A stretch of DNA of 64,000 nt from contig JAEUHD010000086.1 of NCBI GenBank assembly GCA_016793645.1, positions 31,397 to 95,396 of the forward strand. Reading direction: 5' to 3'. The first letter of the stretch is position 1. Each line of letters starts with the position of its first letter. Source of the DNA: Verrucomicrobiales bacterium (GTDB taxonomy: Bacteria > Verrucomicrobiota > Verrucomicrobiia > Limisphaerales > UBA9464). Under the pieces are notes generated by a model that had not been told where the DNA came from, made no database searches, and was given only the letters and a program-made list of their open reading frames with translations. Below are positions 3,673 through 52,497 of the stretch, piece by piece. A program made the translations under genes and the position numbers.

Positions 3673-3683
3673 CGAAGGTCCGG

Positions 3684-5183: not shown

Positions 5184-5407
5184 GGCCTGTGGCTCGGCAA
5201 TTCCCGTGGACACCCGCGAAGTGAAGCGGAATTCCCGAGTCAGTGTCACGGCATATGGAGGTGCCCCCCTCTCCATCCGACCCAACCGCTGGCGCAGGCC
5301 ATGGTCGGCGCCGCTTTCGCCCTCTGGACTTTTGGGAATGTTGCTGCTAAGCACCCCCTCCTGCCGGTGCCGCCGTTCAAGCCGCCGGCCGTATTGACAC
5401 GAATACC

Positions 5408-25700: not shown

Positions 25701-27212
25701 TCACTCTTTGGACGTTTGGGGGTGTTCACCCAATTCACTGGACGTCGGAGCGTCACCCGACTTGCCCGAATCCTTCCATCCCCCCAGTCGATACCGGAGA
25801 TAATCACGGGACACCCCCAACTTCCGGGCGGCCTTGGAAACATTTCCACGCGTTTCCGCGAGGGCATGCTCAATCAATCGCAAAATGGCCTGTTCGAGGG
25901 AAAAACCCGACTCGGGAAATCGAAACTCCGGGTTGAACCAATCATCCTTGGATGCCGATGTCGCGGGCACTGTCCCCACGAAACCCGCGGCAGATGAGCC
26001 TGCCGTGGAAGTGGTTCCACCAGCGCCAAGCAACTGATCCAGGTTGAGGGCATCCCCGTCCTCGAAGACCAATGCTCGTTCCAGTTCATGGGCGAGTTCC
26101 CGGACATTTCCGGGCCATCCATATCCGAGGACCCGCCGACGCCCCAAGTCGGATAGCGGCCGGACAGGAATCCGATGTCGACGAACCAACCGGGCGATGA
26201 GGGCGTCCGCCAACCGCAATACGTCATCCCCCCGCTCCCGGAGTGGGGGAAGCACCACCCGAAACAAATCCAATCGATGGAACAAATCCTCACGAAACCG
26301 CCCCTCACGGACCAGATCCCTGAGTTCACGGTTCACGGCGGCGACCACACGAACCTCGACGGGAATGTCCCGGTTCCCTCCCACCCGACGCACCCGTCGG
26401 TCCTCCAAGACCGTCAGCAATTTGGCCTGCAGCGGGAGGCTGAGGGAAGCGAGTTCGTCAAGAAACAGCGTGCCTCCGTTGGCCGCCTCAAACAGTCCCA
26501 TCCGGGCACTTCTCGCATCGGTGAACGCACCCTTTTCGTGCCCAAACAGCTCGGACTCCGCGAGATTCTCGGGAATGGCGGCACAATTGGCCTCCACCAG
26601 CGGGGCGGATGCCCGGGGACCTTCATTGTGAATCCATCGCGCAATGGTCGTCTTTCCCGTCCCTGTCTCTCCCTGGATCAAAACCGGGGGCGGCGTCGAT
26701 CCCGCGCCATGGAGCCGATGATCGGCGGACAGGATCCGCTGCAGCTGCGTCTCCAGTCCCGCCAGGGCCGAGCCAAAGAAAAAACCCGCCTCCGGTGAAT
26801 CCGAGCGCCGGTGCTCAGCAACGCGGACGGCCTGTCGCTGCTGGCGCGCCCTGGCCAGGGTCAAGGCCAGGGCCTCCGGCTCAAAGGGCTTGGTCAGGTA
26901 GTCCAGTGCCCCCAACTTCATGGCGGCCACCGCCCCGGCCACGCCGCCCATCGCGGTCATGACAATGACGCCCGCCGTGGTGCCAAAGACCCCGTCCCGG
27001 AGGAGGTCCGTCCCCGTCCCATCCGGCAAATTCACGTCGAGAAGCACGTAATCGAAACTCAGCTCCCCGGCCAACTGCCGGGCCGCCCTCAAGGAATCCG
27101 CCTGCGACACGTCGGCACCCATGCCCTCCAGTGTCGCGGCCAAATGCCGCCTCAGCAGCGGTTCGTCATCGACCACCAGAATGTTGAATCCCGACAAAGC
27201 TCCTGACCGCAT
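25701..27212 (-). CDS. sigma-54-dependent response regulator (NtrC/ZraR family: receiver + AAA+ + Fis-type HTH)
   Basis: Receiver ILVVDDEPLLR...DYVLLDVNLPDG, Walker A GETGTGKT, the GAFTGA-type loop ESELFGHEKGAFTDA, and a C-terminal HTH GNVSKAARKLGVSRDYLRYR. Confidence 0.92.
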   Translation of the reverse strand: MRSGALSGFNILVVDDEPLLRRHLAATLEGMGADVSQADSLRAARQLAGELSFDYVLLDVNLPDGTGTDLLRDGVFGTTAGVIVMTAMGGVAGAVAAMKLGALDYLTKPFEPEALALTLARARQQRQAVRVAEHRRSDSPEAGFFFGSALAGLETQLQRILSADHRLHGAGSTPPPVLIQGETGTGKTTIARWIHNEGPRASAPLVEANCAAIPENLAESELFGHEKGAFTDARSARMGLFEAANGGTLFLDELASLSLPLQAKLLTVLEDRRVRRVGGNRDIPVEVRVVAAVNRELRDLVREGRFREDLFHRLDLFRVVLPPLRERGDDVLRLADALIARLVRRHRIPVRPLSDLGRRRVLGYGWPGNVRELAHELERALVFEDGDALNLDQLLGAGGTTSTAGSSAAGFVGTVPATSASKDDWFNPEFRFPESGFSLEQAILRLIEHALAETRGNVSKAARKLGVSRDYLRYRLGGWKDSGKSGDAPTSSELGEHPQTSKE

Positions 27213-37057: not shown

Positions 37058-38410
37058 TCAATCATCCACCGACTGCTCGACCAGGAGCCGAAACTTCCAT
37101 CCGGTCTCGTCGTTGCCTCCCTGCGTCTGCTTCATCAGCACGCCGATCAAGCCCTCCTTGGGATCTGCAAAATACTGGGTATTGAAGTAACCGCCCCAGT
37201 CGAACGTCCCCGGGCTGCCCTCGCCCCCTTTGGCCTTCCCCTTTTCCGTGACGATTCCAAAGGCCAGTCCATACACCTTGTCGCCATTGCCCCACAGATC
37301 CACCGGAACCTGTCCGCTCAGGATCGTCTCCACGGTGGTCCGGCTGAGAATCCGCACGCCACCCAGTTCGCCGCCATTGAGGTACATTTGCAGGAACGTG
37401 GCATAATCCTTCGCCGTGCTGCAAAGCCCTGCGCCGCCGGAGAAAAAGGTCTTGGCGCCCTGGATCGGGTAGTTGGGATCGTAAAAAGTAACCGGGTACC
37501 GCACCCACTTCCCGTCGGCGGGCTTCTGAACCTGGACGAGACGGCCCGCCTTGGACTCCGGAAGGTAGAACCCCGTGTCCCTCATCCCCAGGGGACCGAA
37601 GATGTGAGTCTGCAGGAACACATCAAACGGCTGACCTGAGATCACCTCAATGAACCGGCCGAGGACGTCCAATCCCTCGCTGTAGGTGAACTTCTCCCCG
37701 GGGTGATGATGCAGCGGGAGGGCGGCGAGCTTCCGGACATTGTCGGCGAGAACCACCGGTTCCGTCGTAAACAGGTCCACAATCCCCGCCTTGGCGTAAA
37801 TCGCCTTAAAGCGGGGATCGCCATCGATCACGCCGTACCCCAGACCGGACGTATGCGTTAGGAGGTCCCGAATCGTAATCCCCCGCTTCGCAGGCTCTCC
37901 CGTCCAGGTGCCATCCACCTCATTGTACGTCTTCAACACCTGCGGACTCTTGAACTCAGGAAGGTACTTGGAAATGGGGTCATCCAGTTTGAAACGCCCC
38001 TGCTCCCAAAGCATCATGACCCCGGTCGCCGTGATGGCCTTGGACTGGGAGGCGATCCGGAAAATGTCGTCCCGGCGCAACGGACGTCCCGTATCGGCAT
38101 CCGCGGTGCCATAGGCATTGTGAAAGACGATCTTTCCCCGTCGAGCCGCGAGGGCCACCACTCCCGGGATTTGTCCCGACTGAACGGCGTCGCGACACAA
38201 TTGGTCGATGCGCGCCAACCGGTCCCGGGAGATGCCCACCTGTTGCGGGGCCCCCTCGGAAAGCGGCGGGGAATGTTTCGATGACTGCGTCTGGGCCGCC
38301 CCTGGAAGTGGGCCCAGGACAATGCAGGCAGCCGCGGCCACTCCGATCCATCGGTTCAGGGATTTCACGGAGGTAAGGCTACCGGTCCGCACCTCGGGAT
38401 TGGAATCCAT
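37058..38410 (-). CDS. exported serine hydrolase of the beta-lactamase/PBP (class C-like) family
   Basis: 450 aa from MDSNPEV with a signal/TM segment. SxxK motif IASQSKAIT and a YSEG (YxN-like) region. The remaining 260 N-terminal codons of the 710-aa track ORF are antisense to nuoB and were rejected. Confidence 0.8.
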   Translation of the reverse strand: MDSNPEVRTGSLTSVKSLNRWIGVAAAACIVLGPLPGAAQTQSSKHSPPLSEGAPQQVGISRDRLARIDQLCRDAVQSGQIPGVVALAARRGKIVFHNAYGTADADTGRPLRRDDIFRIASQSKAITATGVMMLWEQGRFKLDDPISKYLPEFKSPQVLKTYNEVDGTWTGEPAKRGITIRDLLTHTSGLGYGVIDGDPRFKAIYAKAGIVDLFTTEPVVLADNVRKLAALPLHHHPGEKFTYSEGLDVLGRFIEVISGQPFDVFLQTHIFGPLGMRDTGFYLPESKAGRLVQVQKPADGKWVRYPVTFYDPNYPIQGAKTFFSGGAGLCSTAKDYATFLQMYLNGGELGGVRILSRTTVETILSGQVPVDLWGNGDKVYGLAFGIVTEKGKAKGGEGSPGTFDWGGYFNTQYFADPKEGLIGVLMKQTQGGNDETGWKFRLLVEQSVDD

Positions 38411-38490
38411 AAAATCCAAGGGGAAACAACCCTGCCATATGGGATACGGAGCCCCGGATTGCCAGCCAGCCGACCCCATTCCACCCGACT

Positions 38491-38508
38491 TTGTGAAAAG
38501 AATCACAA
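38491..38508. promoter_or_regulatory. TTGTGAA-N4-ATCACAA palindrome: Rex-type (or CRP/FNR-family) operator upstream of nuoB
   Basis: The sequence TTGTGAAAAGAATCACAA has perfect TGTGA-N6-TCACA arms and matches 17 of 18 positions of the Rex consensus TTGTGAAnnnnTTCACAA. It lies 77 nt upstream of the nuoB ATG at 38585. Confidence 0.55.
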
Positions 38509-38584
38509 AAGCCGCTTGCGATGAAAACGGGGCGAACCCAAAGTGCCGCGACCGCTCCGATTCACGGGGCGTCGAGCGCATCCC

Positions 38585-39196
38585 ATGGCCTCCACGACAG
38601 CATCGCCCAGCCCCTCCGTTTCGACGGAAATTGGTTACAATTCCAAGATTGAGGGCGAGGTCGTCCACACCCAGTTGGACTCGGCGATCAACTGGTTTCG
38701 AAAGAACTCCCTCTGGCCCATGCCGATGGGATTGGCCTGCTGCGCCATCGAGCTGATGGCTGCCGGGGCCAGCCGGTTCGACATCTCCCGATTTGGCGCC
38801 GAGGTCATGCGATTTTCCCCCCGTCAATCCGACGTGATGATTGTTGCGGGAACGGTCACCTACAAGATGGCCCTCGCGGTACGCCGGATTTACGAGCAGA
38901 TGGCAGAGCCCAAGTGGGTCATCGCCATGGGAGCCTGCGCTTCGACGGGAGGCATGTACCGCAGCTACGCCGTCCTGCAGGGCGTGGACAACATTGTGCC
39001 GGTGGACGTGTACATCGCCGGCTGCCCGCCGCGGCCCGAGGCACTGCTCGACGCGCTGATGAAGCTGCAGGACAAGGTCAGCCGCGACCCGATCACCAAG
39101 ACCTTGAAGAAGGACGTGGCGCCGTCCGAATACGGACGCCTCGGGCTCCGGATCGGCAATCCCGCCGCCCCGGCCCCCGTGACGTCGCACTCCTGA
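38585..39196 (+). CDS. nuoB: NADH-quinone oxidoreductase subunit B
   Basis: Cluster-N2 cysteines in [18 protein letters not shown] and GCPPRPE. An alternative start exists at 38543. Confidence 0.93.
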
Positions 39197-39224: not shown

Positions 39225-39806
39225 GTGGCCTCCCCCCAAGAACTTGCCGGCCGGATTTGCTCCCAGTTTGGCGACCTGGTGTCGTCACCCTCCGAATTTC
39301 GGGGGGAATTCGCACTGACGGTATCCGATGCCGGGCGAATCGTGGAGGTGTGCCGCTACGCCAAAGACGCCTGCGGATTCGACCTCCTGCTGGACCTGAG
39401 CACCGTGGACAACTACGGCGGGGATCCACGCTGGACCGTCGTGTACGAGCTGTATTCGGTGGGCTCGGGATGCCACCTCCGCCTGAAAACCCACGTCGGT
39501 GAGGAGCAGTCCGAGGTTCCAAGCGTTTCGACCGTCTGGCCCGCCGCCAACTGGCATGAACGCGAGGCCTACGACATGATGGGAGTTCGGTTTTCCGGGC
39601 ACCCCGACCTCCGTCGAATCCTGATGTGGGAGGGCTATCCCTATTTCCCGCTCCGAAAGGATTTCCCGCTTGCCGGCAAACCCACAGACCTTCCCGAGGT
39701 CGCGTTCACCCGGCCGGCACCGCTGGAAGGCGGCCCGTTCGTCACCGCACCCGGCGGGCGCGACTCCACCCAGCGCGAACCGCGCGCCCGCACTCCGCAA
39801 CCCTAG
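39225..39806 (+). CDS. nuoC: NADH-quinone oxidoreductase subunit C
   Basis: ANWHEREAYDMMGVRFSGHPDLRRILM signature; 193 aa. Confidence 0.92.
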   Translation: MASPQELAGRICSQFGDLVSSPSEFRGEFALTVSDAGRIVEVCRYAKDACGFDLLLDLSTVDNYGGDPRWTVVYELYSVGSGCHLRLKTHVGEEQSEVPSVSTVWPAANWHEREAYDMMGVRFSGHPDLRRILMWEGYPYFPLRKDFPLAGKPTDLPEVAFTRPAPLEGGPFVTAPGGRDSTQREPRARTPQP

Positions 39807-39812
39807 GATTCG

Positions 39813-41084
39813 ATGGCTGTCCAGGAATTGAACATCAAGGAACCCGCGGCACGTATCGCCACGGCTTCCGCCGACGAACTTCAGGACCTCCAGGGGGACC
39901 GGATGGTCGTCAACATGGGGCCGTCGCATCCCGCCACCCACGGCGTGCTGCGACTGGTGATTGAACTCGACGGCGAGACCATTACCAAGGCAGATCCGGA
40001 CATCGGCTACCTCCACCGGGGTGACGAGAAAATTGCGGAGGCGATGACCTGGAATCAGTTCATCCCGTATACCGACCGCCTGGACTACCTGGCACCGTTG
40101 GCGAACAACGTGGCCTACGCGCTGGCGGTGGAAAAGTTGCTGGGGATCGACGCCGGCATCCCGCCCCGCTGCCAGTACATTCGGGTCATCTGTTGCGAAC
40201 TGGCCCGCATCTCGGCGCACCTGCTGGGACTGGGCGCATTCGCCATGGACGTCGGCGCGATGACGGTGTTCCTGCACACCTTCACGGAACGGGAGAAGAT
40301 CTATAATCTGGCCGAGTCACTGACCGGAGCGCGCTTCACCACATCCTACACCCGCATCGGCGGGGTAACCCGCGACACGCCCGCCGGATGGATCGCGGCC
40401 GTCCGCGACTTTTGCGACGGCGTCTCGGCCCAAATTGACGAGTCGGAGAAGCTGCTCACCCGCAACCGGGTCTGGGTGGATCGCACCCGCGACATCGGGG
40501 TTATTTCCCGTGCGGACGCCATCGCCTACGGCCTGACGGGCCCCAATCTGCGCGGCAGCGGATGCGACTACGACGTCCGCAAGGCGCACCCGTATCTCTG
40601 CTACAAGGATCTGGAATTTGACGTCGCCGTGGGATCGGTCGGTGATTGCTACGACCGGTATCTCGTCCGCATGGAGGAGATGCGCCAGAGCGTTCGAATC
40701 CTCCGCCAATGCGTGGACCGCATTCCGGGCGGGGCTGACAACCCCTCGCGGGAGCCTGTCCATGTCGCGGACGGCAAGGTCTTTCTCCCCCCGAAGTCCG
40801 CCGTGTTGACCAAGATGGAGGAACTCATTCACCAGTTCATGCTGGTGACCGAGGGCCCCAATGCGCCGGCCGGAGAGGTTTACTTCGGTGCCGAAAACCC
40901 GAAGGGCGAGCTCGGCTTTTACATCAACAGCCGCGGCGGGGGCACGCCCTACCGGCTGAAGATCCGGTCCCCATCGTTTTGCAACCTGAGCATCCTGCCC
41001 GTCCTGCTGCCGGGCTGCCTCATGAGCGACGTGGTTTCGGTCCTTGGCTCCCTCGACTTCGTGATGGGCGAATGTGACCGGTGA
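39813..41084 (+). CDS. nuoD: NADH-quinone oxidoreductase subunit D
   Basis: MVVNMGPSHPATHGVLRL, YTDRLDYL and a C-terminal GECDR; 423 aa. Confidence 0.95.
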   Translation: MAVQELNIKEPAARIATASADELQDLQGDRMVVNMGPSHPATHGVLRLVIELDGETITKADPDIGYLHRGDEKIAEAMTWNQFIPYTDRLDYLAPLANNVAYALAVEKLLGIDAGIPPRCQYIRVICCELARISAHLLGLGAFAMDVGAMTVFLHTFTEREKIYNLAESLTGARFTTSYTRIGGVTRDTPAGWIAAVRDFCDGVSAQIDESEKLLTRNRVWVDRTRDIGVISRADAIAYGLTGPNLRGSGCDYDVRKAHPYLCYKDLEFDVAVGSVGDCYDRYLVRMEEMRQSVRILRQCVDRIPGGADNPSREPVHVADGKVFLPPKSAVLTKMEELIHQFMLVTEGPNAPAGEVYFGAENPKGELGFYINSRGGGTPYRLKIRSPSFCNLSILPVLLPGCLMSDVVSVLGSLDFVMGECDR

Positions 41085-41094
41085 GAATTTTCGC

Positions 41095-41589
41095 ATGAGC
41101 TTTTCCGTTCCATCCAAACTGGAGGCCGAGCTGGACGAACTGGCGACGCACTACCCGCAGAAGCGGAGCGCCTCGCTGATGTTCCTGCACGCCCTCCAGG
41201 AGCACTTCGGATTCATTTCCCGGGACGCGGTGGAGTGGACCGCCACCAAGCTCGGTCTGCAGCCGATCAACGTGTACGAACTTGTGACGTTCTACCCGAT
41301 GTTCCGGCAGGAGAAACTTGGCCGGACGCAGGTCAGGGTGTGCCGGACGTTGAGTTGCGCGCTCGCGGGGGCCTACGAGTTGCGGGACCATTTCTGCAAG
41401 AACCTGGGCCTCGACACCGCGAAGCATGGTCCCCAGACCACGCCGGACGGGAAGTTCACCGTGGAATTCGTCGAATGCCTCGCGAGCTGCGGAAGCGCGC
41501 CGGTGGTGATGGTCAACGATGATCTGCTGGAGAAGGTCACCGCCGCGGACGCGGAGAAGGTCCTGACCCGGGGGAGGGTAACGGAGTGA
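41095..41589 (+). CDS. nuoE: NADH-quinone oxidoreductase subunit E
   Basis: The 2Fe-2S ligands are in VCRTLSCALAG and ECLASCGSAPV. An alternative start at 41074 overlaps nuoD. Confidence 0.9.
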   Translation: MSFSVPSKLEAELDELATHYPQKRSASLMFLHALQEHFGFISRDAVEWTATKLGLQPINVYELVTFYPMFRQEKLGRTQVRVCRTLSCALAGAYELRDHFCKNLGLDTAKHGPQTTPDGKFTVEFVECLASCGSAPVVMVNDDLLEKVTAADAEKVLTRGRVTE

Positions 41590-41684: not shown

Positions 41685-41758
41685 TGGCTGCCCGACATGG
41701 ATTTGAACCATGACAAGCAGATTCAGAGACTGCTGTGCTACCGTTACACCATCGGGCA
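41685..41758 (-). tRNA. tRNA-Gln (anticodon CUG), CCA encoded, antisense to the nuo cluster
   Basis: The minus strand reads TGCCCGATGGTGTAACGGTAGCACAGCAGTCTCTGAATCTGCTTGTCATGGTTCAAATCCATGTCGGGCAGCCA. Perfect 7-bp acceptor stem with U1-A72 and G73 (bacterial Gln identity features). D stem GTGT/GCAC, anticodon loop CTCTGAA, T arm CATGG/TTCAAAT/CCATG. There is one U31-U39 mismatch. Confidence 0.9.
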
Positions 41759-41810: not shown

Positions 41811-43214
41811 ATGCCTGAAGAGTTTAAACTCATCACAAAAAACCTCGATCAACCCGGTTTCACACCGGACATCGGGTGCTACCAGCGCCACGGCGGATAC
41901 GAGGCGCTGCGCAAGGCGTTGTCCACCGCCGCGCGTGATCTCCCGGACGGAAAGAAGCAGTCGCCGCAGGAGGTCATCCGCGATGAGGTGCTGAAATCCG
42001 GTCTCCGGGGGCGGGGCGGCGCCGGATTTTCCGCCGGACTCAAGTGGAGTTTCGTGGACCGCCGCAGCGGCAAACCGATTTACCTGATCTGCAACGCCGA
42101 CGAATCGGAACCGGGCACGTTCAAGGACCGTCAGATTCTCCATCGCGATCCGCACCAACTGATCGAGGGGATGATCATCTCCTGCTGGGCCAATGACGTT
42201 AAGCTCGCCTACATCTACATCCGCGGCGAGATGCCCATCGCCGCCCGGCGCCTGAACCAGGCCCTCGCCGAGGCACGCGCGGCGGGATTTCTCGGGAAGA
42301 ACATTCTCGGCACCGGCTACGACCTGGAAATCCACGTCCACCGGGGCGCCGGCGCCTACATCTGCGGCGAGGAAACGGGCCTGATCGAATCGCTCGAGGG
42401 AAAGCGTCCGTATCCTCGCATCAAGCCCCCGTACTTCCCCGCGGTGCTCGGGCTCTACCTCTGCCCGACGATCGTCAACAACGTCGAGACGCTGTGTCAC
42501 GTCCGCCACATCGTGACCCTGGGCGGCGCGGAGTACGCCAAGCTGGGCACGCCCAACAACACCGGCACCCGCATCGTGAGCCTGAGCGGCGATGTTCAAC
42601 GGCCCGGCTACTACGAGATCGAAGTGGGCAAGGTGACGCTGGGTGAGCTGATCCAGCATCCCAACTTCGGCGGCGGATTGCGCCCCGGACGCCAACTCAA
42701 GGCGATCATCCCCGGCGGTTCCTCATCCAAGGTCCTGAAGGCCGGCGAGAAATTCCAACTCAAGCGCAAGGGTCCCGATGGGCAGATGACCTCGGTGGAA
42801 ACCGCCCTGCTCGACCTTCCCTACGACTTCGATTCGCTTCAGCAGGCCGGGACGATGTCCGGTTCCAGCGCGATCATCGTCCTCGACGATTCCCGCAGCA
42901 TGGTGGCCACCCTGGGCAACCTGTCCGAGTTTTACGCCCATGAGAGCTGCGGCCAATGCACCCCGTGCCGCGAAGGGGCGCTGTGGATGGAAAAGGCCCT
43001 GCACCGCCTCAACCATGGCGAGGGACGCAAGTCGGACGCCGACTACCTGCTCCATATCGCCCAAAACATCCAGGGCCGCACGATCTGCGCCTTCGGCGAA
43101 GCCGCCTCGTGGCCGGTGCTCAGTTTCGTGAAGAAGTTCCGGGACGAATTCGAATCCAAGGGTGCGGCGGACGAATCCGCGCGCGCCGCGAACCCCGCCC
43201 GACCCCAACACTGA
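41811..43214 (+). CDS. nuoF: NADH-quinone oxidoreductase subunit F
   Basis: GRGGAGFSAGLKWSF FMN/NADH site and ESCGQCTPCREG 4Fe-4S motif; 467 aa. Confidence 0.95.
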   Translation: MPEEFKLITKNLDQPGFTPDIGCYQRHGGYEALRKALSTAARDLPDGKKQSPQEVIRDEVLKSGLRGRGGAGFSAGLKWSFVDRRSGKPIYLICNADESEPGTFKDRQILHRDPHQLIEGMIISCWANDVKLAYIYIRGEMPIAARRLNQALAEARAAGFLGKNILGTGYDLEIHVHRGAGAYICGEETGLIESLEGKRPYPRIKPPYFPAVLGLYLCPTIVNNVETLCHVRHIVTLGGAEYAKLGTPNNTGTRIVSLSGDVQRPGYYEIEVGKVTLGELIQHPNFGGGLRPGRQLKAIIPGGSSSKVLKAGEKFQLKRKGPDGQMTSVETALLDLPYDFDSLQQAGTMSGSSAIIVLDDSRSMVATLGNLSEFYAHESCGQCTPCREGALWMEKALHRLNHGEGRKSDADYLLHIAQNIQGRTICAFGEAASWPVLSFVKKFRDEFESKGAADESARAANPARPQH

Positions 43215-43220
43215 TTTTCC

Positions 43221-44948
43221 ATGTCGAACGTCGCGACAACCGCCCCGGCACCCGCCGCGCCGCCCCCGGTGGAGAAGCTCAAGATCAAGGTGGACGGACG
43301 GGAGATCGAGGTCCCGAAGTTGATGCCCGACTGGCAGGGACGTCTCCAGCCGACCACCATGCTCCAGGCCTGCCAGATCGCCGGAGCCGAGGTGCCGCAC
43401 TACTGCTACCACCCGAAACTTCCCGTCGCCGGCAACTGCCGCATGTGCCTGGTTGAGTTTGGCACCCCGATGATGGGACCCGACCGCAAGCCGGTGCTCA
43501 ATCCGGATGGCACTCCCAAGATTGCCAAGTCGGTCCTTCCCTACGAGCCCGGCACCCCGCGAGGGGCGATCGCCTGCGCCACGCCCATCTCCCCCGGAAT
43601 GGAGATTTATCCCGGATCCGCTGCCACCCAGCAAATGCGCGAGGCGGTGCTGGAGTCGCTCCTGATCAATCACCCTCTGGACTGCCCCATTTGTGACCAG
43701 GCCGGGGAATGCAAACTGCAGGAATATTCGGTCGAACACGGTCAGGCCAACAGCCGCTTCGTGGAGACCAAGGTCCACAAGCCGAAGGCGGTGGATCTCG
43801 GTCCGAGGATCGTCCTCGACGATGAACGCTGCATCCTGTGCACGCGGTGCATCCGCTTCTCCCGCGATATTGCCGGGGATGATGCCCTCGGCATCGTGAA
43901 CCGGGGCTCCTACAACACCATCGCTGCATGGAAGGAGGGCGCCTTCGACAACAACTACACCCTCAACACCGTCGACCTCTGTCCGGTCGGCGCGCTGACG
44001 TCGCGGGATTTCCGCTTCAAAATGCGGGTGTGGTTCCTGAAGGAGACCCGCAGCGTCTGCACCTCCTGTTCAACCGGATGCAACATCACCATCGGATCCC
44101 GGGAGGACGTGATCCATCGCTACGAACCCCGCGACAATGATGCAGTCAACGCGGCGTGGATGTGCGATGCCGGACGCCTGAACTACAAGTGGGTGGGACG
44201 CCCCGACCGGCTCAAGGAGGTCCGCCGCCGCAATGCCGACGGAACTTCGGACCGGATTCCCTGGGAGACCGCAATCCGGGAAATCACCGCCCGACTTTCG
44301 AACGCCGTCTCCGGCAGCGTTGCCGTCGTGGCCAGCGCCCGACAGACGACCGAAGAACTCCATTTGCTGAAGAAGCTGGCCAACCGCTTCGGGGCGATCA
44401 CGGACTCCGTTCCCCGTACGGGGGAGGCGGACCGCCTCCTCGTCAGCGCGGATCGAAATCCGAACAGCAACGGTGCGCGCCTCACCGGCATCGCCTACAC
44501 CGAGATGGGGATCCGTCTTCCGGAAATTGCCGAAGGCATCCGGTCGGGATCCATCCGCACGCTGGTGGTCTTCGGCGAAGACGTCACCCAACACGGGATC
44601 GGAGCGGATCTGCTCGCCCGGCTCGAAACCCTCGTCGTGAGCGACATCCTTCCGAATCCCACCACGGCGGCGGCACACTACCTCCTGCCGGGATGCGCCC
44701 ATGCCGAGAAGCGCGGGACCTACATCAATGGAAAAGGACGCCTTCAGCGCTTCCTGAAGGCCGTCGAACCGCACGGCGACGCGCGCCCCGAATGGGAGTT
44801 TCTCCGGGAACTCGTCACCGCGGTCACCGCCCAGGCCGTCCCGGCAACCCTCGAGGGACTTTTCAATGAAATGTCGGATGGTATCCCTGCCTTCGGGGGC
44901 GTCCGATGGGCCGGGATCGGTGATCTCGGGGTCAACGTGACGATCTGA
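43221..44948 (+). CDS. nuoG: NADH-quinone oxidoreductase subunit G (short form)
   Basis: CYHPKLPVAGNCRMCLVE 2Fe-2S motif, HPLDCPICDQAGECKLQ and CILCTRCIRF clusters. The 575-aa length and the Thermus-type insertion after CRMCLVE are noted. Confidence 0.92.
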   Translation: MSNVATTAPAPAAPPPVEKLKIKVDGREIEVPKLMPDWQGRLQPTTMLQACQIAGAEVPHYCYHPKLPVAGNCRMCLVEFGTPMMGPDRKPVLNPDGTPKIAKSVLPYEPGTPRGAIACATPISPGMEIYPGSAATQQMREAVLESLLINHPLDCPICDQAGECKLQEYSVEHGQANSRFVETKVHKPKAVDLGPRIVLDDERCILCTRCIRFSRDIAGDDALGIVNRGSYNTIAAWKEGAFDNNYTLNTVDLCPVGALTSRDFRFKMRVWFLKETRSVCTSCSTGCNITIGSREDVIHRYEPRDNDAVNAAWMCDAGRLNYKWVGRPDRLKEVRRRNADGTSDRIPWETAIREITARLSNAVSGSVAVVASARQTTEELHLLKKLANRFGAITDSVPRTGEADRLLVSADRNPNSNGARLTGIAYTEMGIRLPEIAEGIRSGSIRTLVVFGEDVTQHGIGADLLARLETLVVSDILPNPTTAAAHYLLPGCAHAEKRGTYINGKGRLQRFLKAVEPHGDARPEWEFLRELVTAVTAQAVPATLEGLFNEMSDGIPAFGGVRWAGIGDLGVNVTI

Positions 44949-44957
44949 GGACGAACC

Positions 44958-46052
44958 ATGGACGCGATCTACTATCTCGATCCGACGACCCAGTTCGTCC
45001 TGTTCAGCATCGTCAAGATCGTGGTGGCGTTTGTCATCACGCTGACGTTCGTGGCGTATGCCGTGCTCGCCGAGCGGAAGATTTCCGCCTGGATCCAGGA
45101 CCGCGTCGGACCAAACCGCGCCACGCCGTTTTTCGCGCAGTATCTTCCGGTGATCGGTCCCGCCTTGGTGCGCTTGGGCATTTTCCAGCCCATGGCGGAT
45201 GGCCTGAAGTTCCTGCTCAAGGAGGACTTCACCCCGGCGTACGTCCGGAAGGTGTACTTCTGGCTGGCGCCCGCGCTGACCGCCATCCCGGCCTTCATGA
45301 CCATCGCGGTCATCCCGTTCGGATCGACCCTCGGAAACCCCAACAACCCGATGGTGATCGCCGACCTGAACGTCGGCATCCTTTACTCCTTCGGCATCGT
45401 GTCACTGGGAGTCTATGGGATTGTGCTCGCGGGCTACGCCTCGAACTCCAAGTATCCGTTCCTCGGGGGCATCCGCTCCTCGGCCCAGATGATCTCCTAC
45501 GAGATCGCCATGGGCATGAGCGTCGTTGCGGTGTTCATGGTGATTGGAGATCTCAACCTCTCCAAGGTGGTCGAATACCAGGGTGCGAACATCCTGCACT
45601 GGATGGCCTGGAAGCAGCCCCTCGCCTTCTTCATTTTCCTGGTGTCCGCCTTCGCCGAGACGAACCGCCTGCCGTTTGACCTCCCCGAATCCGAATCCGA
45701 ACTCGTGGGCGGCTACCACACCGAATACAGTTCGATGAAGTTCGCCCTCTTCTTCCTCGGTGAGTACGCGAACATGATCGCCGCCTCGGCCATGATGGTG
45801 ACGCTGTTCTTCGGAGGATGGGCCTACCCGTGGGGCGGCGGTGCGGCACAGGGCTTCCTCGGGGGCGTGGGCCACATCGTGTGCTTCCTCGTAAAGATGC
45901 TGGTCCTGATGGGCGTGTTCATCTGGGTTCGCTGGATGTTCCCCCGCTTCCGCTACGACCAATTGATGGACCTCGGATGGCGCCGATTCATCCCGCTGGC
46001 CCTCGTCAACATTCTCGTCACCGCCCTCGTGCTGGCCGCCCTGAACGACTGA
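44958..46052 (+). CDS. nuoH: NADH-quinone oxidoreductase subunit H
   Basis: ERKISAWIQDRVGPNR signature and 8 TM helices. Confidence 0.95.
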   Translation: MDAIYYLDPTTQFVLFSIVKIVVAFVITLTFVAYAVLAERKISAWIQDRVGPNRATPFFAQYLPVIGPALVRLGIFQPMADGLKFLLKEDFTPAYVRKVYFWLAPALTAIPAFMTIAVIPFGSTLGNPNNPMVIADLNVGILYSFGIVSLGVYGIVLAGYASNSKYPFLGGIRSSAQMISYEIAMGMSVVAVFMVIGDLNLSKVVEYQGANILHWMAWKQPLAFFIFLVSAFAETNRLPFDLPESESELVGGYHTEYSSMKFALFFLGEYANMIAASAMMVTLFFGGWAYPWGGGAAQGFLGGVGHIVCFLVKMLVLMGVFIWVRWMFPRFRYDQLMDLGWRRFIPLALVNILVTALVLAALND

Positions 46053-46068
46053 ACGGAAACGGACCCCC

Positions 46069-46635
46069 ATGACCAAGGTTGTCGAACGCAAACCCCTCAG
46101 TCTCCTGGAGCGCACCTACCTGCCGTCCATCGTCGGCGGCCTTCAGGTCACTTGGAAACACTTCGCAAAATCCGTCCTGAAGGGGAAACCCCTCACGATG
46201 GAATACCCGGAGGAGAAGTGGGTTGTCCCCGAGGGCTATCGTGGCGCGCCCTACCTCGTGAAGGATCAGGAGGGCGACACCAAGTGCGTCAGTTGCCAGC
46301 TCTGCGAATTCATCTGCCCTCCCAAGGCGATCCGGATCACCCCGCCCGGCCCTGATGGCGCTCCGGCAGACCGTGCCAACGCCGAGAAGATGCCGAAGGA
46401 ATTCGAGATCAACATGCTCCGGTGCATTTTCTGCGGTCTCTGCCAGGAAGTGTGCCCGGAGGAGGCAATCTTCCTGCAACGGGACTACTCCCTGACCGGC
46501 ACCAGCCGGGAAGCGATGGTGTACAACAAGCAGAGGCTTCTGGAACTCGGGGGCATCCATGGCGGCATCCAGAAATGGAAGCACAAGCTCGAGGAAGCCC
46601 GCGAACAGGAGGCGTTCCCGGTCCGCGAAGCCTGA
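46069..46635 (+). CDS. nuoI: NADH-quinone oxidoreductase subunit I
   Basis: Two ferredoxin motifs, [12 protein letters not shown] and [12 protein letters not shown]. Confidence 0.95.
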
Positions 46636-46647
46636 TCCCGACCTCCC

Positions 46648-47160
46648 ATGTCCGAACTGCTTCCCTCAGCCCTCTTCTACGCCTTCGCCGGACTCGCGCT
46701 GGTGTTTGGATTCCTCTGCGTGGCGAATCCGCTCAGCCGGAATCCGGTGACGAGCGCGATGTTCCTTGTCCTGACCATTGTCTCGCTGGCCGGGCTGTAC
46801 ATTCTTCTTCACGCCTTCTTCCTCGCCGCGATCCAGATTCTCGTCTACGCGGGCGCGGTCATGGTGCTCTTCCTGTTCGTCATCATGCTGCTCAATCTCG
46901 AGGAGGAGGAGCGGCGGAAGATCCGCGGCATCACCCTCGGCCTCGGCGCACTGTCGGTGGCGGTGATCGCCGGCATCCTGATCCGGGCGGTGGTCGCCGC
47001 CCGGCCATCCGCGGGCACCACGCCCTTGGTGGAGGGCGGCATCCGGAACCTGGGCCATACCCTCTTCACCCTCTATCTCCTGCCCTTCGAGGCGATGTCC
47101 CTCCTGCTGCTGGTCGGCATGGTGGGCGTCATCCTGCTCAGCAAGAAGGATCTGAAATGA
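46648..47160 (+). CDS. nuoJ: NADH-quinone oxidoreductase subunit J
   Basis: 170-aa polytopic protein in the conserved operon position, with an [19 protein letters not shown] motif. Confidence 0.9.
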
Positions 47161-47462
47161 TCGTTGGCCTCCACCACTACCTCGTCGTCAGCGCGCTCCT
47201 GTTCAGCCTCGGGCTGTTCGGCGTCCTCGCCCGCCGCAACCTGCTGGTGATCTACATGAGCCTCGAACTCATGCTGAACGCCGCCAATCTCGCCCTGGTC
47301 GCCTTCTCCCGGTACAACGCCAATCTCAAGGGACAGGTGATGGTCTTCTTCATCATTACCGTCGCCGCCGCCGAGGTGGCGGTCGGGCTCGCCCTCATCG
47401 TCGCCTTGTACCGCCGCCGTGGCACCGCGCACGTCGAGGATCTCAACAGCCTGCGCCTGTGA
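47157..47462 (+). CDS. nuoK: NADH-quinone oxidoreductase subunit K
   Basis: 101 aa, three TM helices, [15 protein letters not shown]. The ATG overlaps the nuoJ TGA. It is hidden at the 3' end of the 346-aa track ORF 46422..47462. Confidence 0.92.
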
Positions 47463-47515
47463 CTGACGCTCCCCTTCAACCCCGCCCGGACACGGTCGCC
47501 GCCGACTGACGCCCC

Positions 47516-49462
47516 ATGGAACCGACCCATCTCCCCGCAACAAATTTTCAGGACCTCGCCTGGGCAATCCTGCTGCTGCCCCTGGTTTCGGCCCTCGCGA
47601 TCACCCTCGGCCTGCGCCGCAACCGGGAATTGACCACCACACTCAGTTTGTCCGCGGTGGGCATCGGATTCGGTCTTAGCGTCTGGCTGTTCTTCCTGTA
47701 CGGCGTTTCCGGGGAACGCCTGGCCGCTACGCCCCTGTCCTGGATGTCCGTCGGCTCACTGTCCGCGCATCTCGGACTTACGGTGGACCCGCTGTCGACG
47801 TTGATGCTCATGGTCGTCACCGGGGTCTCCTTCCTCGTCCACGTCTACAGCACGGGGTACATGGAGGACGACCCGGAGTACCCCCGGTACTTTGCCAGCC
47901 TCGGCTTCTTCACCTTCTCGATGCTGGGCATCGTCCTTTCGGACAATTTCGTCCAGACATTCATTTTCTGGGAACTGGTCGGCGTCTCCAGCTACCTGCT
48001 CGTCGGCTTCTGGTACGAGAAACCTGCGGCAGCGGATGCCGCCAAAAAGGCCTTTCTGACAAACCGCATCGGTGACTTCGGCTTCCTGCTCGGAATCCTC
48101 ATCGTCTGGGCTGCCACCGGCACGGTCTCCTTCGACGCCATGGCCGCCAAGTTGAAGGCGGAACCCGGCATCCTCGGCGCCGCAGCCTCCCTCGCGGGTG
48201 TCCTCATCTTCCTCGGCGCCGTCGGCAAGAGCGCCCAACTGCCGCTCCACGTCTGGCTTCCGGACGCCATGGAGGGCCCCACGCCGGTGTCCGCACTGAT
48301 CCACGCAGCGACAATGGTCGCCGCCGGCGTGTACATGTTGTGCCGGGTTTACTTCCTGCTCGACCTTCCCGCCGCCTGGCCGGCGGCCCTGTCCTTCCTT
48401 GGCAGCATCTCGGCGCTCGACGTCATCGCCTGGACCGGTGCGCTGACATCCCTGGTCGCGGGCGTCATTGCGATCCAACAGGACGACATCAAGCGCATCC
48501 TTGCCTATTCCACGCTCTCACAGCTCGGCTACATGGTGATGGCCGTGGGATGCGGCGGTCCCGATGCCGCGATGTTTCATCTCACTACCCACGCCTGCTT
48601 CAAGGCGCTGCTGTTCCTGGGGGCCGGCGCCGTGATCTACGCCTGTCACCACGAACAGAACATCTGGAAAATGGGCGGCCTGGCGAAGCGGATGCCGGTC
48701 ACCTTCTGGACCTTCCTCTTGGCGACGGCAGCCCTGTGTGGTCTTCCGGTTCTCAGCAGCGGCTTCTACAGCAAGGACGCCATCTTCGCCGCCGCGCTGG
48801 CGTCGAATCGGCCGGTCCTGTTCGGCATCGGAGTTTTGGTGGTCGGACTGACCACGCTCTACATGTCCCGACTGGTGATCATCGCGTTCCTCGGGGAATC
48901 CCGCAGCGAGGCCGCGTCCCATGCGGCCGATCCCGGGCGCAACATGACCCTCCCGCTCCTGATCCTCGCGGTTCCGTCGGTCTCCCTCGGTTGGCTTCCC
49001 GTGGGCGCCTATTTCAAGTCAGCCATTTTCCCAGGAGCGGTCACCCACTCCGCGGAGGGCTTTTCGGACGTCTTCTTCGAACCGTTCAATCATTCGCCCC
49101 TCGGCGCCTTCCTCGGCTTCGGTCTGATGGCCTTTGGTCTGTCCGTCGCCTTCGCCACCTATTGGGGTGCTGCGATGGATCCCATGCCCGGACACCTGCC
49201 CCGGTTGTCCCGCGCGCTGCGCAACCGCCTCTACTTCGATGAGATTTACGCGGCAACCCTGATCCCCCTTCACGACGCCGTCGCCGCGCTCGCAGACTGG
49301 GTGGACCGCTGGATTGTCCAAGGGTTGTTTGTCCGCGGAATTTCAGGCGGCATGGATTTGTTCGGACGAGCACTCCGATTGGTCCAGACCGGCAATCTCC
49401 AGACGTACGCGTTCCTGTTCGTGGCCGGGGTCGCCCTGGTCGTCCTCCTGGCCCTGAAATAA
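47516..49462 (+). CDS. nuoL: NADH-quinone oxidoreductase subunit L
   Basis: 648-aa antiporter-like subunit with WELVGVSSYLLVGFW and GKSAQLPLHVWLPDAMEGPTPVSALIHAATMV. Confidence 0.95.
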   Translation: MEPTHLPATNFQDLAWAILLLPLVSALAITLGLRRNRELTTTLSLSAVGIGFGLSVWLFFLYGVSGERLAATPLSWMSVGSLSAHLGLTVDPLSTLMLMVVTGVSFLVHVYSTGYMEDDPEYPRYFASLGFFTFSMLGIVLSDNFVQTFIFWELVGVSSYLLVGFWYEKPAAADAAKKAFLTNRIGDFGFLLGILIVWAATGTVSFDAMAAKLKAEPGILGAAASLAGVLIFLGAVGKSAQLPLHVWLPDAMEGPTPVSALIHAATMVAAGVYMLCRVYFLLDLPAAWPAALSFLGSISALDVIAWTGALTSLVAGVIAIQQDDIKRILAYSTLSQLGYMVMAVGCGGPDAAMFHLTTHACFKALLFLGAGAVIYACHHEQNIWKMGGLAKRMPVTFWTFLLATAALCGLPVLSSGFYSKDAIFAAALASNRPVLFGIGVLVVGLTTLYMSRLVIIAFLGESRSEAASHAADPGRNMTLPLLILAVPSVSLGWLPVGAYFKSAIFPGAVTHSAEGFSDVFFEPFNHSPLGAFLGFGLMAFGLSVAFATYWGAAMDPMPGHLPRLSRALRNRLYFDEIYAATLIPLHDAVAALADWVDRWIVQGLFVRGISGGMDLFGRALRLVQTGNLQTYAFLFVAGVALVVLLALK

Positions 49463-49467
49463 TCGCC

Positions 49468-50994
49468 ATGTCCACGCTTTCCCTGCTCCCCCTGCTCCCC
49501 ATTCTGGGAGCCTTGGTCATCCTGTTGGTTCCCGCGGCGTACAGTGCTGCCTGGCGTGGCATCGCCCTTGGCATGACGGGGGTCAACCTCCTCGTGGCCA
49601 CCACGATCTTCTTCACCTTTCACGTCGGGATCGGCGGATACCAGATGGTCGCGAACCATGCGTGGGTCCCGGCGATCGGATTGAACTACCACGTCGGTGT
49701 GGACGGTCTCAGCGTCGGACTCCTGCTCGTCGGCGCTCTGGTCTCGTTCGCCGCCACTTGGGTTTCCTCCGAGATCAAATCCCACGAACGCTTCTTTTAC
49801 GTCCTCCTCCTCGTGATCTCCGGTGGGGTGCTCGGATCCCTGATCTCGCTGGACCTGTTCTTCCTCTACTTCTTCAACGAACTGGCGCTGGTGCCGACCT
49901 TCCTCATGATCGGCATCTGGGGCCGCGGAGCGGATCGCAGCGCGATCGCCTTTCAGATCACCCTGTATCTCTCCCTCGGTGCCTTGGTGGCCTTGGTGGG
50001 ATTGATCGGGCTCTATGCCTTGTCGGGTGCCAATACGCTGGACGTCGTCACGCTCGCCGCCTGGCTGAAGACGCATCCGCTCCCGGCCTCCACTCAAACC
50101 GTTCTCTTCGGGCTCCTGCTGTTCGGGTTCGGGACTCTGGTGGGCCTGTGGCCATTTCATAGCTGGGCACCCGCCGGCTACGCGGCCGCCCCGACGGCCA
50201 CGGCGATGATGCACGCCGGCATCCTCAAGAAGGTGGGAGCCTTCGCCCTTCTCCGCGCCGCCTTCCCGCTGCTTCCGGAGGGGGTCGCCCAATGGACCCG
50301 GATCCTCGCGATCCTCTGCCTCGGCAACATTCTGTATTGTGGCTGGGTCGCCATGCGTCAACGGAACCTGAACCTGCTGTTCGGAAACTCCAGCCTGGCC
50401 CACATGGGCTTTGTGTTCCTGGGTCTGGCCAGTGTCAGTTTGATCGGCATCACCGGAGCCGTGCTGATCATGGTGGCGCACGCGCTCCTGGCCTCCCTGG
50501 AATACGCCCTGAGCGGCCACATCTACCGCGAGACCGGTCATCTGGAACTCGACCGCATGGGCGGACTGATGCGTCGGATGCCTTTCATCGGGGCGGCCTT
50601 GGTGGCGGCGATGCTGGCGGGCTGCGGAGTCCCGGGGTTTGCCAGTTTCGCCGGCGAATTGGCGGTGATGTTCGGCGTCTGGCCCACCCTCCCCGCATTC
50701 GTGGTGGCGGCGGCGTTTGGTGGCCTTCTGATCGGTGGCATCTACATGCTGCGCGGCATCCGCCAGGTCGCCCACGGCCCCGATGTCGGCACGACGGGCG
50801 GCGACGTCCCCTGCTGGACCGGACGCATCCCCTACCTCGTCCTTCTGGTACCTCTCATTCTTTTTGGCGTGGCTCCCTACGTCCTGGTGGATCGGATTCG
50901 CCCGAGCGCCGCGCTCGTCGTGGAGCGTGCGCTTCTCAAACCCTCCCCTGCGGCCCCCGCAGCCCCGGCCGTCGCCGCTGCACCGGCCCACTGA
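49468..50994 (+). CDS. nuoM: NADH-quinone oxidoreductase subunit M
   Basis: 508-aa antiporter-like subunit with WPFHSWAPAGYAAAPTATAMMHAGILKK. Confidence 0.93.
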   Translation: MSTLSLLPLLPILGALVILLVPAAYSAAWRGIALGMTGVNLLVATTIFFTFHVGIGGYQMVANHAWVPAIGLNYHVGVDGLSVGLLLVGALVSFAATWVSSEIKSHERFFYVLLLVISGGVLGSLISLDLFFLYFFNELALVPTFLMIGIWGRGADRSAIAFQITLYLSLGALVALVGLIGLYALSGANTLDVVTLAAWLKTHPLPASTQTVLFGLLLFGFGTLVGLWPFHSWAPAGYAAAPTATAMMHAGILKKVGAFALLRAAFPLLPEGVAQWTRILAILCLGNILYCGWVAMRQRNLNLLFGNSSLAHMGFVFLGLASVSLIGITGAVLIMVAHALLASLEYALSGHIYRETGHLELDRMGGLMRRMPFIGAALVAAMLAGCGVPGFASFAGELAVMFGVWPTLPAFVVAAAFGGLLIGGIYMLRGIRQVAHGPDVGTTGGDVPCWTGRIPYLVLLVPLILFGVAPYVLVDRIRPSAALVVERALLKPSPAAPAAPAVAAAPAH

Positions 50995-51009
50995 TTCCCG
51001 CATCCCGCG

Positions 51010-52497
51010 ATGAACTCCTCATTGCTCGCCATCGAATTTCTGGTCGTGGTCCTCGGCCTGGGCATCCTGCTCGCCGACCTTTGGATCCCATCCGGTGCCC
51101 GCCGCGGCCTCGCCTATGCGGCCGCGACCGGACTGCTTCTGGTTCTGACCTTGCACGGTGGAGCGCTCGCCCCCGGCGACGACACCGCATTCGGGGGCAT
51201 GTTCCTTGTGGATGCCCTCGCCAACTACTTCAAGACGCTCTTCATCGTCGCGACCATCGCGGTGCTGCTGATCTCGTCCGGATATGCCGACCGGCTCGAC
51301 GGCTATGGTGAATATGTCGCGCTCACCCTCTTTGCCCTCGCCGGAATGCTGCTCGCGGCGTCCGCCAATGACTTCATCCTGATGTTCGTCGCACTGGAGC
51401 TGGTGACCGTGACGTTCTACGTCCTGGTCAGCTTCCAACGACGCCGGCAGTCCTCCCTCGAGGCCGGCGTGAAGTATCTCATTTTCGGGGCGCTTGCGGC
51501 CGCCTTCATGGTGTATGGGATCGCGCTCATCTTTGGCTCCGCCAACACCACCAACTTCTACGAGATCGCCTCCCGTCAGGCGGAACTCGGGAAATCCCCG
51601 GTGTTTGTCATCGGACTCCTCCTCACCCTGGTCGGGTTGGGCTTCAAGATCTCCGCATTCCCCTTCCAGATGTGGACTCCGGACGTCTATCAGGGCGCTC
51701 CCGTCCCAACGACAGCCTTCCTGGCCACCGGTTCCAAGGCCGCCGGGTTCGTCCTGCTGCTCCGGCTCGCCTACAGTGTCGTTCCGGAAGTCATGGCCCG
51801 CTGGAGCCACCTACTCCTGGGCTTCGCCATGGCGACCATGCTGTATGGGAGCTTTGCCGCCCTCGCCCAGCGCAGCGTCAAACGCCTCATGGGATACAGC
51901 TCCATCGCCAACGCCGGTTATCTTCTGCTGGGAATTGGCGCAACCAACGTCACCGGTTCGACCGCCATCCTTTATTTCCTTTCCGGATACGTCTTTACCA
52001 CCCTGGCAGCATTCGCCGTCATCTCCCGGGTCACGGTCCAGGACGACAATGACGACATCAGCGTCTTTGCCGGTCTGGGGAACCGCTCGCCCCTGCTGGC
52101 GGCCGCAATGACGCTGGCGCTGGTCAGCCTCGCCGGCATCCCGCCGCTGGCGGGCTTTTTTGGCAAATTCTACCTCTTCAAGGCAGCCCTCCTCCAGGTG
52201 CCCACGAGCCCGCTGTTCCTGGTCGCGGTTCTCATCGCCTGCGTGTCCGTGGTCCTGTCCCTCTACTACTACTTCAACATCATCCGGGTGATGTACTGGC
52301 CCGCCCAGGACGCTGTGGACCGGCCGGTGACCGTCCCGATGGCGGTCGGGATCAGCCTGGCCGCCTGTCTGGCGGGAATCCTGGTGGTCGGCATCTTCCC
52401 CAGCGGCGTCATCGGTCTCGCCCATGAGGCGGTCGCCGGACTCGGCACGCCGGCTCCGGAGATGCACGTCCAGGCGCACCACGCCGCGGCGCACTGA
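51010..52497 (+). CDS. nuoN: NADH-quinone oxidoreductase subunit N
   Basis: 495-aa antiporter-like subunit with FKISAFPFQMWTPDVYQGAPVPTTAFLATGSK. Confidence 0.93.
   Translation: MNSSLLAIEFLVVVLGLGILLADLWIPSGARRGLAYAAATGLLLVLTLHGGALAPGDDTAFGGMFLVDALANYFKTLFIVATIAVLLISSGYADRLDGYGEYVALTLFALAGMLLAASANDFILMFVALELVTVTFYVLVSFQRRRQSSLEAGVKYLIFGALAAAFMVYGIALIFGSANTTNFYEIASRQAELGKSPVFVIGLLLTLVGLGFKISAFPFQMWTPDVYQGAPVPTTAFLATGSKAAGFVLLLRLAYSVVPEVMARWSHLLLGFAMATMLYGSFAALAQRSVKRLMGYSSIANAGYLLLGIGATNVTGSTAILYFLSGYVFTTLAAFAVISRVTVQDDNDDISVFAGLGNRSPLLAAAMTLALVSLAGIPPLAGFFGKFYLFKAALLQVPTSPLFLVAVLIACVSVVLSLYYYFNIIRVMYWPAQDAVDRPVTVPMAVGISLAACLAGILVVGIFPSGVIGLAHEAVAGLGTPAPEMHVQAHHAAAH

Follow-up and report, generated by a model that had tools for sequence, protein, structure and literature searches.

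An 18-bp palindrome precedes the NDH-1 genes in the 64 kb stretch of DNA analysed here (the window), and the same palindrome is found upstream of nuoB in related Verrucomicrobial genomes. Since it is conserved in front of nuoB across these relatives, chance can be excluded, and the reading of the palindrome as a putative site for a functional regulator is strongly supported. Most likely it lets an NADH-sensing repressor of the Rex type match the level of complex I to the redox state. We put the probability that the palindrome is read by a dimeric factor with Rex-type DNA specificity, with Rex itself as the most likely reader, at about 0.6. The data show the sequence, its conservation, its fixed place relative to a conserved promoter-like block and the gene sets beside the 18-mer; where transcription starts, which protein binds, whether it represses or activates and how it responds to NADH are inferred.

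Actinobacteria are known to have Rex boxes in front of nuo genes, and predictions of such boxes exist for other phyla. In the literature on Rex in Verrucomicrobia, Akkermansia and Planctomycetes we found no description of a Rex regulon for Verrucomicrobiota, and a literature search for Rex boxes preceding the genes of alternative complex III likewise gave nothing.

The palindrome and its conservation in front of nuoB

Positions 38491–38508 of the window read exactly TTGTGAAAAGAATCACAA, which differs from the Rex consensus TTGTGAANNNNTTCACAA at position 12 only (A for T). Two complementary 7-nt arms, TTTGTGA and TCACAAA (38490–38509), enclose the spacer AAAGAA. The palindrome lies inside a 174-nt divergent intergenic region, with a PF00144 gene on one flank and nuoB on the other:

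38491–38508, no strand: putative 18-bp palindromic operator TTGTGAAAAGAATCACAA, with 17 of its 18 bases as in the Rex consensus, conserved 5' of nuoB
37058–38410, minus strand: PF00144 (beta-lactamase family) gene, divergent, with its start 80 nt from the palindrome; context, outside the conserved module
38585–39196, plus strand: nuoB (PF01058), first gene past the promoter, with no nuoA upstream

The preliminary description of this DNA had reported perfect TGTGA-N6-TCACA arms at 38491–38508, a single departure from the Rex operator consensus and a distance of 77 nt to nuoB. All of this agrees with our reading: the arms even extend to 7 nt, the departure is the A at position 12, and the nuoB ATG at 38585 is 77 nt past the last palindrome base.

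As the G+C content of the window is 63.6%, the A+T-rich 20-mer is conspicuous. Against an expectation of 0.05 occurrences, the 64 kb contain the TGTGA-N6-TCACA core once, and at least one match was seen in 5 of 100 shuffles. For the 12 fixed bases TTGTGA..TCACAA, hand arithmetic from base composition alone gives an expectation of ≈0.001 per window. Scanning the window with the Rex consensus at up to 3 mismatches returned only one other match, a 3-mismatch one at 37765 inside the PF00144 coding region, and the earlier statement that the window holds no second copy is borne out.

A NuoB scan with one genome per species gave 80 loci, nearly all labelled Verrucomicrobiota. The motif TTGTGA-N6-TCACAA was searched with at most one mismatch over the window and these 80 nuoB loci (1.19 Mb). 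There were 33 matches, 32 of which sit 60–157 nt upstream of the nuoB match, while the 33rd (L023:1578) is inside a coding region. The palindrome is present 5' of nuoB in 31 of the 80 other Verrucomicrobial species genomes. Among the closest assessable relatives (NuoB roughly 70–89% identical) the motif was found in 29 of 36, and among more distant ones (Opitutales, Chthoniobacterales and similar) in 2 of 43. At least ≈42 metagenome contigs also carry the same palindrome 5' of a clade-type nuoB. When the clade architecture was used as the query (up to 3 mismatches plus the promoter), no site outside nuoB was detected in the window and the 80 loci.

The consensus 18-mer of the clade is TTGTGAAAAAAATCACAA, from which the window site departs only at spacer position 10. 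Positions that lay outside the selection were also conserved in the 31 sites (A7 in 100%, A8 in 97% and A19 in 94%), compared with averages of 37–42% in the flanks (36 nt to the left). Where the Rex consensus has T at position 12, the window and ≈70% of the orthologous sites have A. The flanking DNA and the upstream genes are not conserved, and the upstream genes of the window adjoin nuoB in none of the 80 relatives. As the upstream genes are not syntenic, the palindrome belongs to nuoB and travels with it. Control of the divergent PF00144 gene was considered as a conserved role and rejected, because this gene is beside nuoB in 0 of 80 relatives.

Two further observations concern nuoB upstream regions of relatives. 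Three close relatives without the palindrome (L008, L020 and L039) have short direct repeats ≈5–40 nt 5' of the nuoB -35, e.g., GCATAATC GCATAATC in L020, and these may be the site of another regulator that replaced the palindrome. Opitutales-type relatives (L040, L042, L046, L051, L053, L054, L059, L062, L064, L065, L068, L073, and L076) have a tRNA-Ser (GGA, once CGA) ≈250–380 nt upstream of nuoB, a context unlike that of the palindrome clade.

Position of the palindrome in the predicted promoter

Just 3' of the palindrome the relatives share a block consisting of CTTGC, ≈17 nt and TAGnTT. In total 78 clade promoters were analysed, comprising 32 from genomes, 42 from metagenome nuoB contigs, 3 of actA genes and 1 of a cytochrome c gene. 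The pattern TTGnnn, 16–18 bp, TAnnnT fits 71 of the 78, with A at position 2 and T at position 6 of the -10 hexamer in 71/71. In 70 of the 78 promoters TTGnnn (in the clade of the form TTGCnn) is found 5–8 bp past the palindrome, most often at a spacing of 7 bp (35 cases) or 6 bp (23 cases), and at 5 or 8 bp in 6 cases each. The corresponding hexamers predicted in the window are:

38516–38521, plus strand: predicted -35 hexamer TTGCGA, 7 bp past the palindrome; the CTTGC block is kept in motif-less relatives
38539–38544, plus strand: predicted -10 hexamer CAAAGT, weak (relatives have TAGnTT), spaced 17 bp from the -35

The window's own hexamers were not recovered by a strict consensus promoter scan. 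Transcription of nuoB would start near 38551 according to this geometry, which would place the centre of the palindrome at about -51 (range -50 to -52). Motif-less close relatives (L006, L008, L020, L022, and others) retain the same -35/-10 block, which makes the palindrome a regulatory add-on and not the promoter itself.

With regard to steric repression, the palindrome ends upstream of the predicted -35 (by 5–8 bp) and overlaps neither the predicted core promoter nor the presumed start site. In Rex systems on record, and in the contigs of other phyla analysed here, the -35/-10 or the start site is overlapped by the operator. A fixed position wholly upstream of the -35 at three kinds of promoter would be unusual for Rex and appears more typical of activator sites. 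The A-run of the spacer is on the non-template strand, in the same orientation, at the nuoB, actA and cytochrome c promoters of the clade. A general orientation bias of the A-run was also considered and dropped, as the nqrA and nuoJ sites of other lineages occur both ways.

Genes beside the 18-mer and the candidate reader

The exact consensus 18-mer was found in at least 120 stretches in a metagenome scan. Among the matches listed, nuoB is downstream in at least 47 stretches, ≈42 of them clade-type and 5 from distant lineages. In these 5, again among the matches listed, NuoB has 50–61% identity, nuoA comes first, and the box is 3–25 nt before the nuoA start. The clade geometry was also seen 5' of at least 3 genes for multihaem cytochromes of the ActA-like kind, where actA is the gene that comes first in alternative complex III, and 5' of at least 1 dihaem cytochrome c gene. 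The ActA-like proteins are 56–70% identical to the ActA encoded beside nuoB in the Verrucomicrobiota genome CP170459.1.

In other lineages the flanking genes among the matches listed were nqrA (4), nuoJ (2), class V aminotransferase genes (2), and one each of atpB (ATP synthase subunit a) and genes for NuoE-like 2Fe-2S, Fer4_22, Rieske, and cytochrome c554-type proteins; ≈53 of the stretches listed were coding, unclassifiable or unrelated. As expected of a Rex regulon, the box is found at promoters of genes for respiration and NADH re-oxidation, both in the clade (nuoB in the window and in more than 70 relatives, actA and cytochrome c) and elsewhere (nuoA, nqrA, atpB and the NuoE-like gene).

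Among the matches listed, the exact 18-mer is also beside rex (PF06971 + PF02629) in three contigs. The rex genes of two of them are Fibrobacter-like (L196) and Treponema-like (L174) according to their database neighbors, and the third rex contig (L088) is low in GC. A further rex locus (L201/L202, GC 0.41) has two boxes, with CTGTGAAAAAAATCACAA directly after the -10. Genuine Rex systems are served by the same box, exactly in L088, L174, and L196 and near-identically in L201/L202, and the variant with A at position 12 is therefore used by real Rex systems. Across phyla, the gene set beside the consensus 18-mer has the signature of a Rex regulon.

In comparison with these rex-linked boxes, the clade 18-mer is identical or nearly so (TTGTGAAAAAAATCACAA; CTGTGAAAAAAATCACAA), whereas the placement differs. 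In L196 and L201/L202 the box comes directly after the -10, at the start site, as in classical occlusion, and in L174 it is ≈200 nt upstream of rex. The boxes of L196, L174, and L201/L202 control rex itself, while a rex-linked copy was not seen in the Verrucomicrobial loci examined.

The earlier proposal of a functional Rex operator before the NDH-1 genes, which named a CRP/FNR-family regulator as the alternative reader, gains support from the nuoB-linked conservation, from the rex, nuo, nqr, atp, NuoE-like and cytochrome neighbors and from the invariant A7. The form is that of a Rex box, i.e., an 18-bp inverted repeat that matches TTGTGAANNNNTTCACAA at 17 of 18 positions, with TTGTGAAAAAAATCACAA as the clade consensus. 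Rex is favored over a regulator of the CRP/FNR family as reader because the clade 18-mer adjoins rex genes in other lineages, because it adjoins nuo, nqr, atp, NuoE-like and cytochrome operons there, and because the invariant A7 belongs to the 7-nt Rex half-site and not to the 5-nt CRP core.

A rex homolog was searched for by tblastn, for which B. subtilis Rex and 8 database Rex proteins gave 9 diverse queries and E. coli CRP/FNR was also used, and at the low sensitivity of this search none was found in the 64 kb window, in the ≈20 kb nuoB surroundings of the 80 relatives, or in the clade-type metagenome contigs. At ≈20 kb per genome, this absence carries no weight against Rex. The same search found Rex only in non-Verrucomicrobial contigs. 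Protein-database searches were made with Fibrobacter-like, Treponema-like and T. aquaticus Rex, the last of which was verified against PDB 1XCB. The matches listed were only Fibrobacter/KSB1-, Treponema- and Thermus-type proteins, with no Verrucomicrobial Rex among them.

The Rex system of Streptomyces is the closest known comparison. In S. avermitilis, nuoA1-N1, atp, cyd, and rex-hem are direct targets that Rex represses by way of TTGTGAANNNNTTCACAA, and NADH releases Rex (PMC5355995). Different phyla share a conserved consensus of the Rex operator (PMC5317091, citing Ravcheev 2012). As with the ROP sites of Streptomyces, an 18-bp inverted repeat of the form TTGTGAANNNNTTCACAA precedes NDH-1 and other respiratory operons in the clade, and we propose that the NADH-oxidising machinery would be derepressed in the same way as NADH rises. 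The S. avermitilis footprints overlap the -35 (-42 to -16 at nuoA1 and -50 to -22 at atpI; PMC5355995), whereas the palindrome studied here ends 5–8 bp upstream of it. Further differences from Streptomyces are the A-run in the spacer, the usual A at position 12, an operon that starts with nuoB and not nuoA, and the phylum, Verrucomicrobiota.

In the mechanism proposed, the putative operator would be built into the nuoB promoter, ending 7 bp before the predicted -35 and centred near -51. The footprint of a bound dimer typically exceeds the 18-mer by a few bp, so that here it would touch sigma region 4 and the edge of the -35 and would mask the A-rich DNA that normally serves as the docking site for the alpha C-terminal domains of RNA polymerase. 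At low NADH/NAD+, Rex would sit on the site and hold down nuoBCDE and probably nuoF-N. When NADH rises, Rex-NADH would leave the DNA, more complex I would be made, and NADH would be re-oxidised. With the same operator and register at alternative complex III and at the dihaem cytochrome c, the regulon would link NADH oxidation to the downstream electron chain. Repression from a position of about -51 is plausible.

One short operator would in this way tie complex I, alternative complex III and cytochrome c together, and would provide a testable handle on the regulation of the respiratory chain in Verrucomicrobiota of the Pedosphaerales/Limisphaerales type, which are widespread and poorly studied in soil and freshwater. 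The fixed placement at -51, if true, would extend the known modes of action of Rex boxes, and it is the sole feature that could make this a new variant. The near-invariant 18-mer together with the promoter could also be a handy marker for regulon members in metagenomes.

The fixed register of about -51 at unrelated respiratory promoters, with the A-tract always on the non-template strand, raises the tentative possibility of a factor that acts through contacts with RNA polymerase instead of by occlusion. This could be a repressor that counters the alpha C-terminal domains or masks an UP element, an activator, or even a protein other than Rex that came to recognise the Rex box by convergence, in a lineage lacking rex.

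Unlikely, in our judgement, is a regulator of the CRP/FNR family (a cyclic-nucleotide or redox/O2 sensor) that sits at a fixed distance upstream of the nuoB, alternative complex III and cytochrome c promoters and activates or represses them. The TGTGA-N6-TCACA core is the CRP consensus, and with a dimeric reader and a place upstream of the core promoter the site has the form of an E. coli-type CRP site. However, the E. coli CRP consensus is generally known in the flanked form AAATGTGA...TCACATTT, whereas a T invariably precedes TGTGA here, and the invariant A7 and the TT/AA ends suit the Rex half-site TTGTGAA. The strict spacing of 5–8 bp to the -35 at different operons would be expected of an activator that touches RNA polymerase, but the promoter already has a conserved -35, which relatives keep without the palindrome. 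Busby and Ebright reportedly described, in 1999, activation of the E. coli CRP type from class II (-41.5) or class I (-61.5, -71.5, and so on) centres. The centre at about -50 to -52 from the presumed start would fall between these, on the wrong helical face.

The distribution of genes bears on the same family. CRP/FNR regulators are widespread, while rex was not found in the clade (window, ≈20 kb nuoB loci and clade-type contigs). On the other hand, a CRP/FNR gene was found neither in the window nor beside the 18-mer (120 matches listed; low tblastn sensitivity), and the sole weak cNMP-like tblastn match in the window and loci searched was in L040, a locus without the motif. E. coli CRP targets are catabolic genes and not nuo or alternative complex III. 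Some members of the family (FNR and HcpR-type) are said to read half-sites that begin with TTG, and Rodionov and co-workers reportedly proposed, in 2004–2005, TTGTGA-N6-TCACAA palindromes for some FNR/HcpR-type members controlling respiratory and redox genes. The FNR/HcpR-type regulons from the same work of 2004–2005 are said to comprise nitrosative or anaerobic respiration genes, with sites usually at -41.5. Neither such a regulator nor such a target set was seen among the loci here; across phyla the 18-mer instead tracks NADH-oxidising complexes and rex, and not typical CRP/FNR targets.

The arms also speak on whether the site could serve another regulator or be a composite promoter element, with an UP-like central A-tract and arms for a clade-specific factor unrelated to Rex and CRP, which we regard as quite improbable. 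The location from -60 to -43 with a non-template A-run does resemble UP-element placement, and the orientation of the A-run is identical at the nuoB, actA and cytochrome c promoters. Yet arms of such perfect conservation and symmetry speak for a dimeric protein that recognises a specific sequence, the arms equal the Rex box, the clade 18-mer serves bona fide rex loci elsewhere, and convergence of an unrelated factor on an identical 18-mer would be unparsimonious.

A chance palindrome, RNA hairpin or terminator with no operator role can be dismissed as extremely improbable: a 61-nt stretch around the palindrome folds somewhat better than shuffles (z = -2.85), and a simple scan gave two weak minus-strand terminator-like hairpins nearby, one with a T-rich tail running into the palindrome, but conservation extends over more than 70 independent genomes or contigs. 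Hairpin and terminator were both rejected on the grounds that the arms are invariant and not co-varying, that the few arm changes break pairing, that the palindrome is upstream of the predicted promoter and hence outside the nuoB mRNA, that the stem is A+T-rich, with no G+C-rich stem and no T-run, and that an Rfam search gave no match.

The NDH-1 cluster and further occurrences of the 18-mer

The genes that follow nuoB in the window are:

39225–41589, plus strand: nuoC, nuoD and nuoE (PF00329, PF00346, PF01257), co-directional with nuoB and closely spaced or overlapping
41685–41758, minus strand: antisense tRNA-Gln(CTG), in the 222-nt gap between nuoE and nuoF
41811–52497, plus strand: nuoF, G, H, I, J, K, L, M and N, downstream of the tRNA gap

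The preliminary description had spoken of an NDH-1 operon. It is correct in that nuoB-N follow the palindrome, but nuoA is lacking and the antisense tRNA-Gln interrupts the cluster between nuoE and nuoF. No nuoA was found upstream of nuoB in the window (38411–38584) or in 79 of the 80 Verrucomicrobial loci, and the cluster begins at nuoB; nuoA must be elsewhere or missing. Only L027 has a nuoA-like ORF, 7.3 kb away from nuoB.

The tRNA-Gln(CTG) is kept at the nuoE-nuoF gap in at least 26 related loci (L001–L004, L006, L009, L011–L015, L017, L019, L020, L022–L025, L027, L028, L032, L033, L036, L037, L039, and L066), ≈2.9–4.9 kb past the nuoB start. It may split the cluster into the transcription units nuoBCDE and nuoF-N, or create convergent transcription. 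The predicted promoter that bears the palindrome certainly serves nuoBCDE, while control of nuoF-N by the palindrome is probable and would depend on read-through across the tRNA gap.

In CP170459.1 (L015, 8756–9421 on the minus strand, and 9908–9925) actA is divergent from nuoB with a tRNA-Cys between them, and actA is without a palindrome of its own. Membership of alternative complex III in the regulon therefore varies between genomes.

The only regulators recognised in the window are a histidine kinase and a sigma-54-dependent response regulator (PF00072 + PF00158 + HTH_8) at 22387–23772 and 25704–27212, both on the minus strand. No link between them and the palindrome was seen.

At the L201/L202 locus (2877–2987 and 3001–5945) the two-box rex is followed by genes for a class V aminotransferase and a 2-hydroxyacid dehydrogenase (serC/serA-like), and in L168 and L179 the 18-mer is 5' of class V aminotransferase genes, which suggests a recurrent link of Rex to serine-pathway genes. 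Low-GC contigs contain one to three exact 18-mers each (L110 at 341 and 432; L166 at 3216, 3500, and 4261; L184 at 293 and 882; L118 at 2588). The 18-mers are near the gene of a conserved Glu-rich protein (MDYDRDEMMGMLKKHNIPYVEV...) with no Pfam match, an arrangement that resembles a repeated element and seems to have no connection with respiration.
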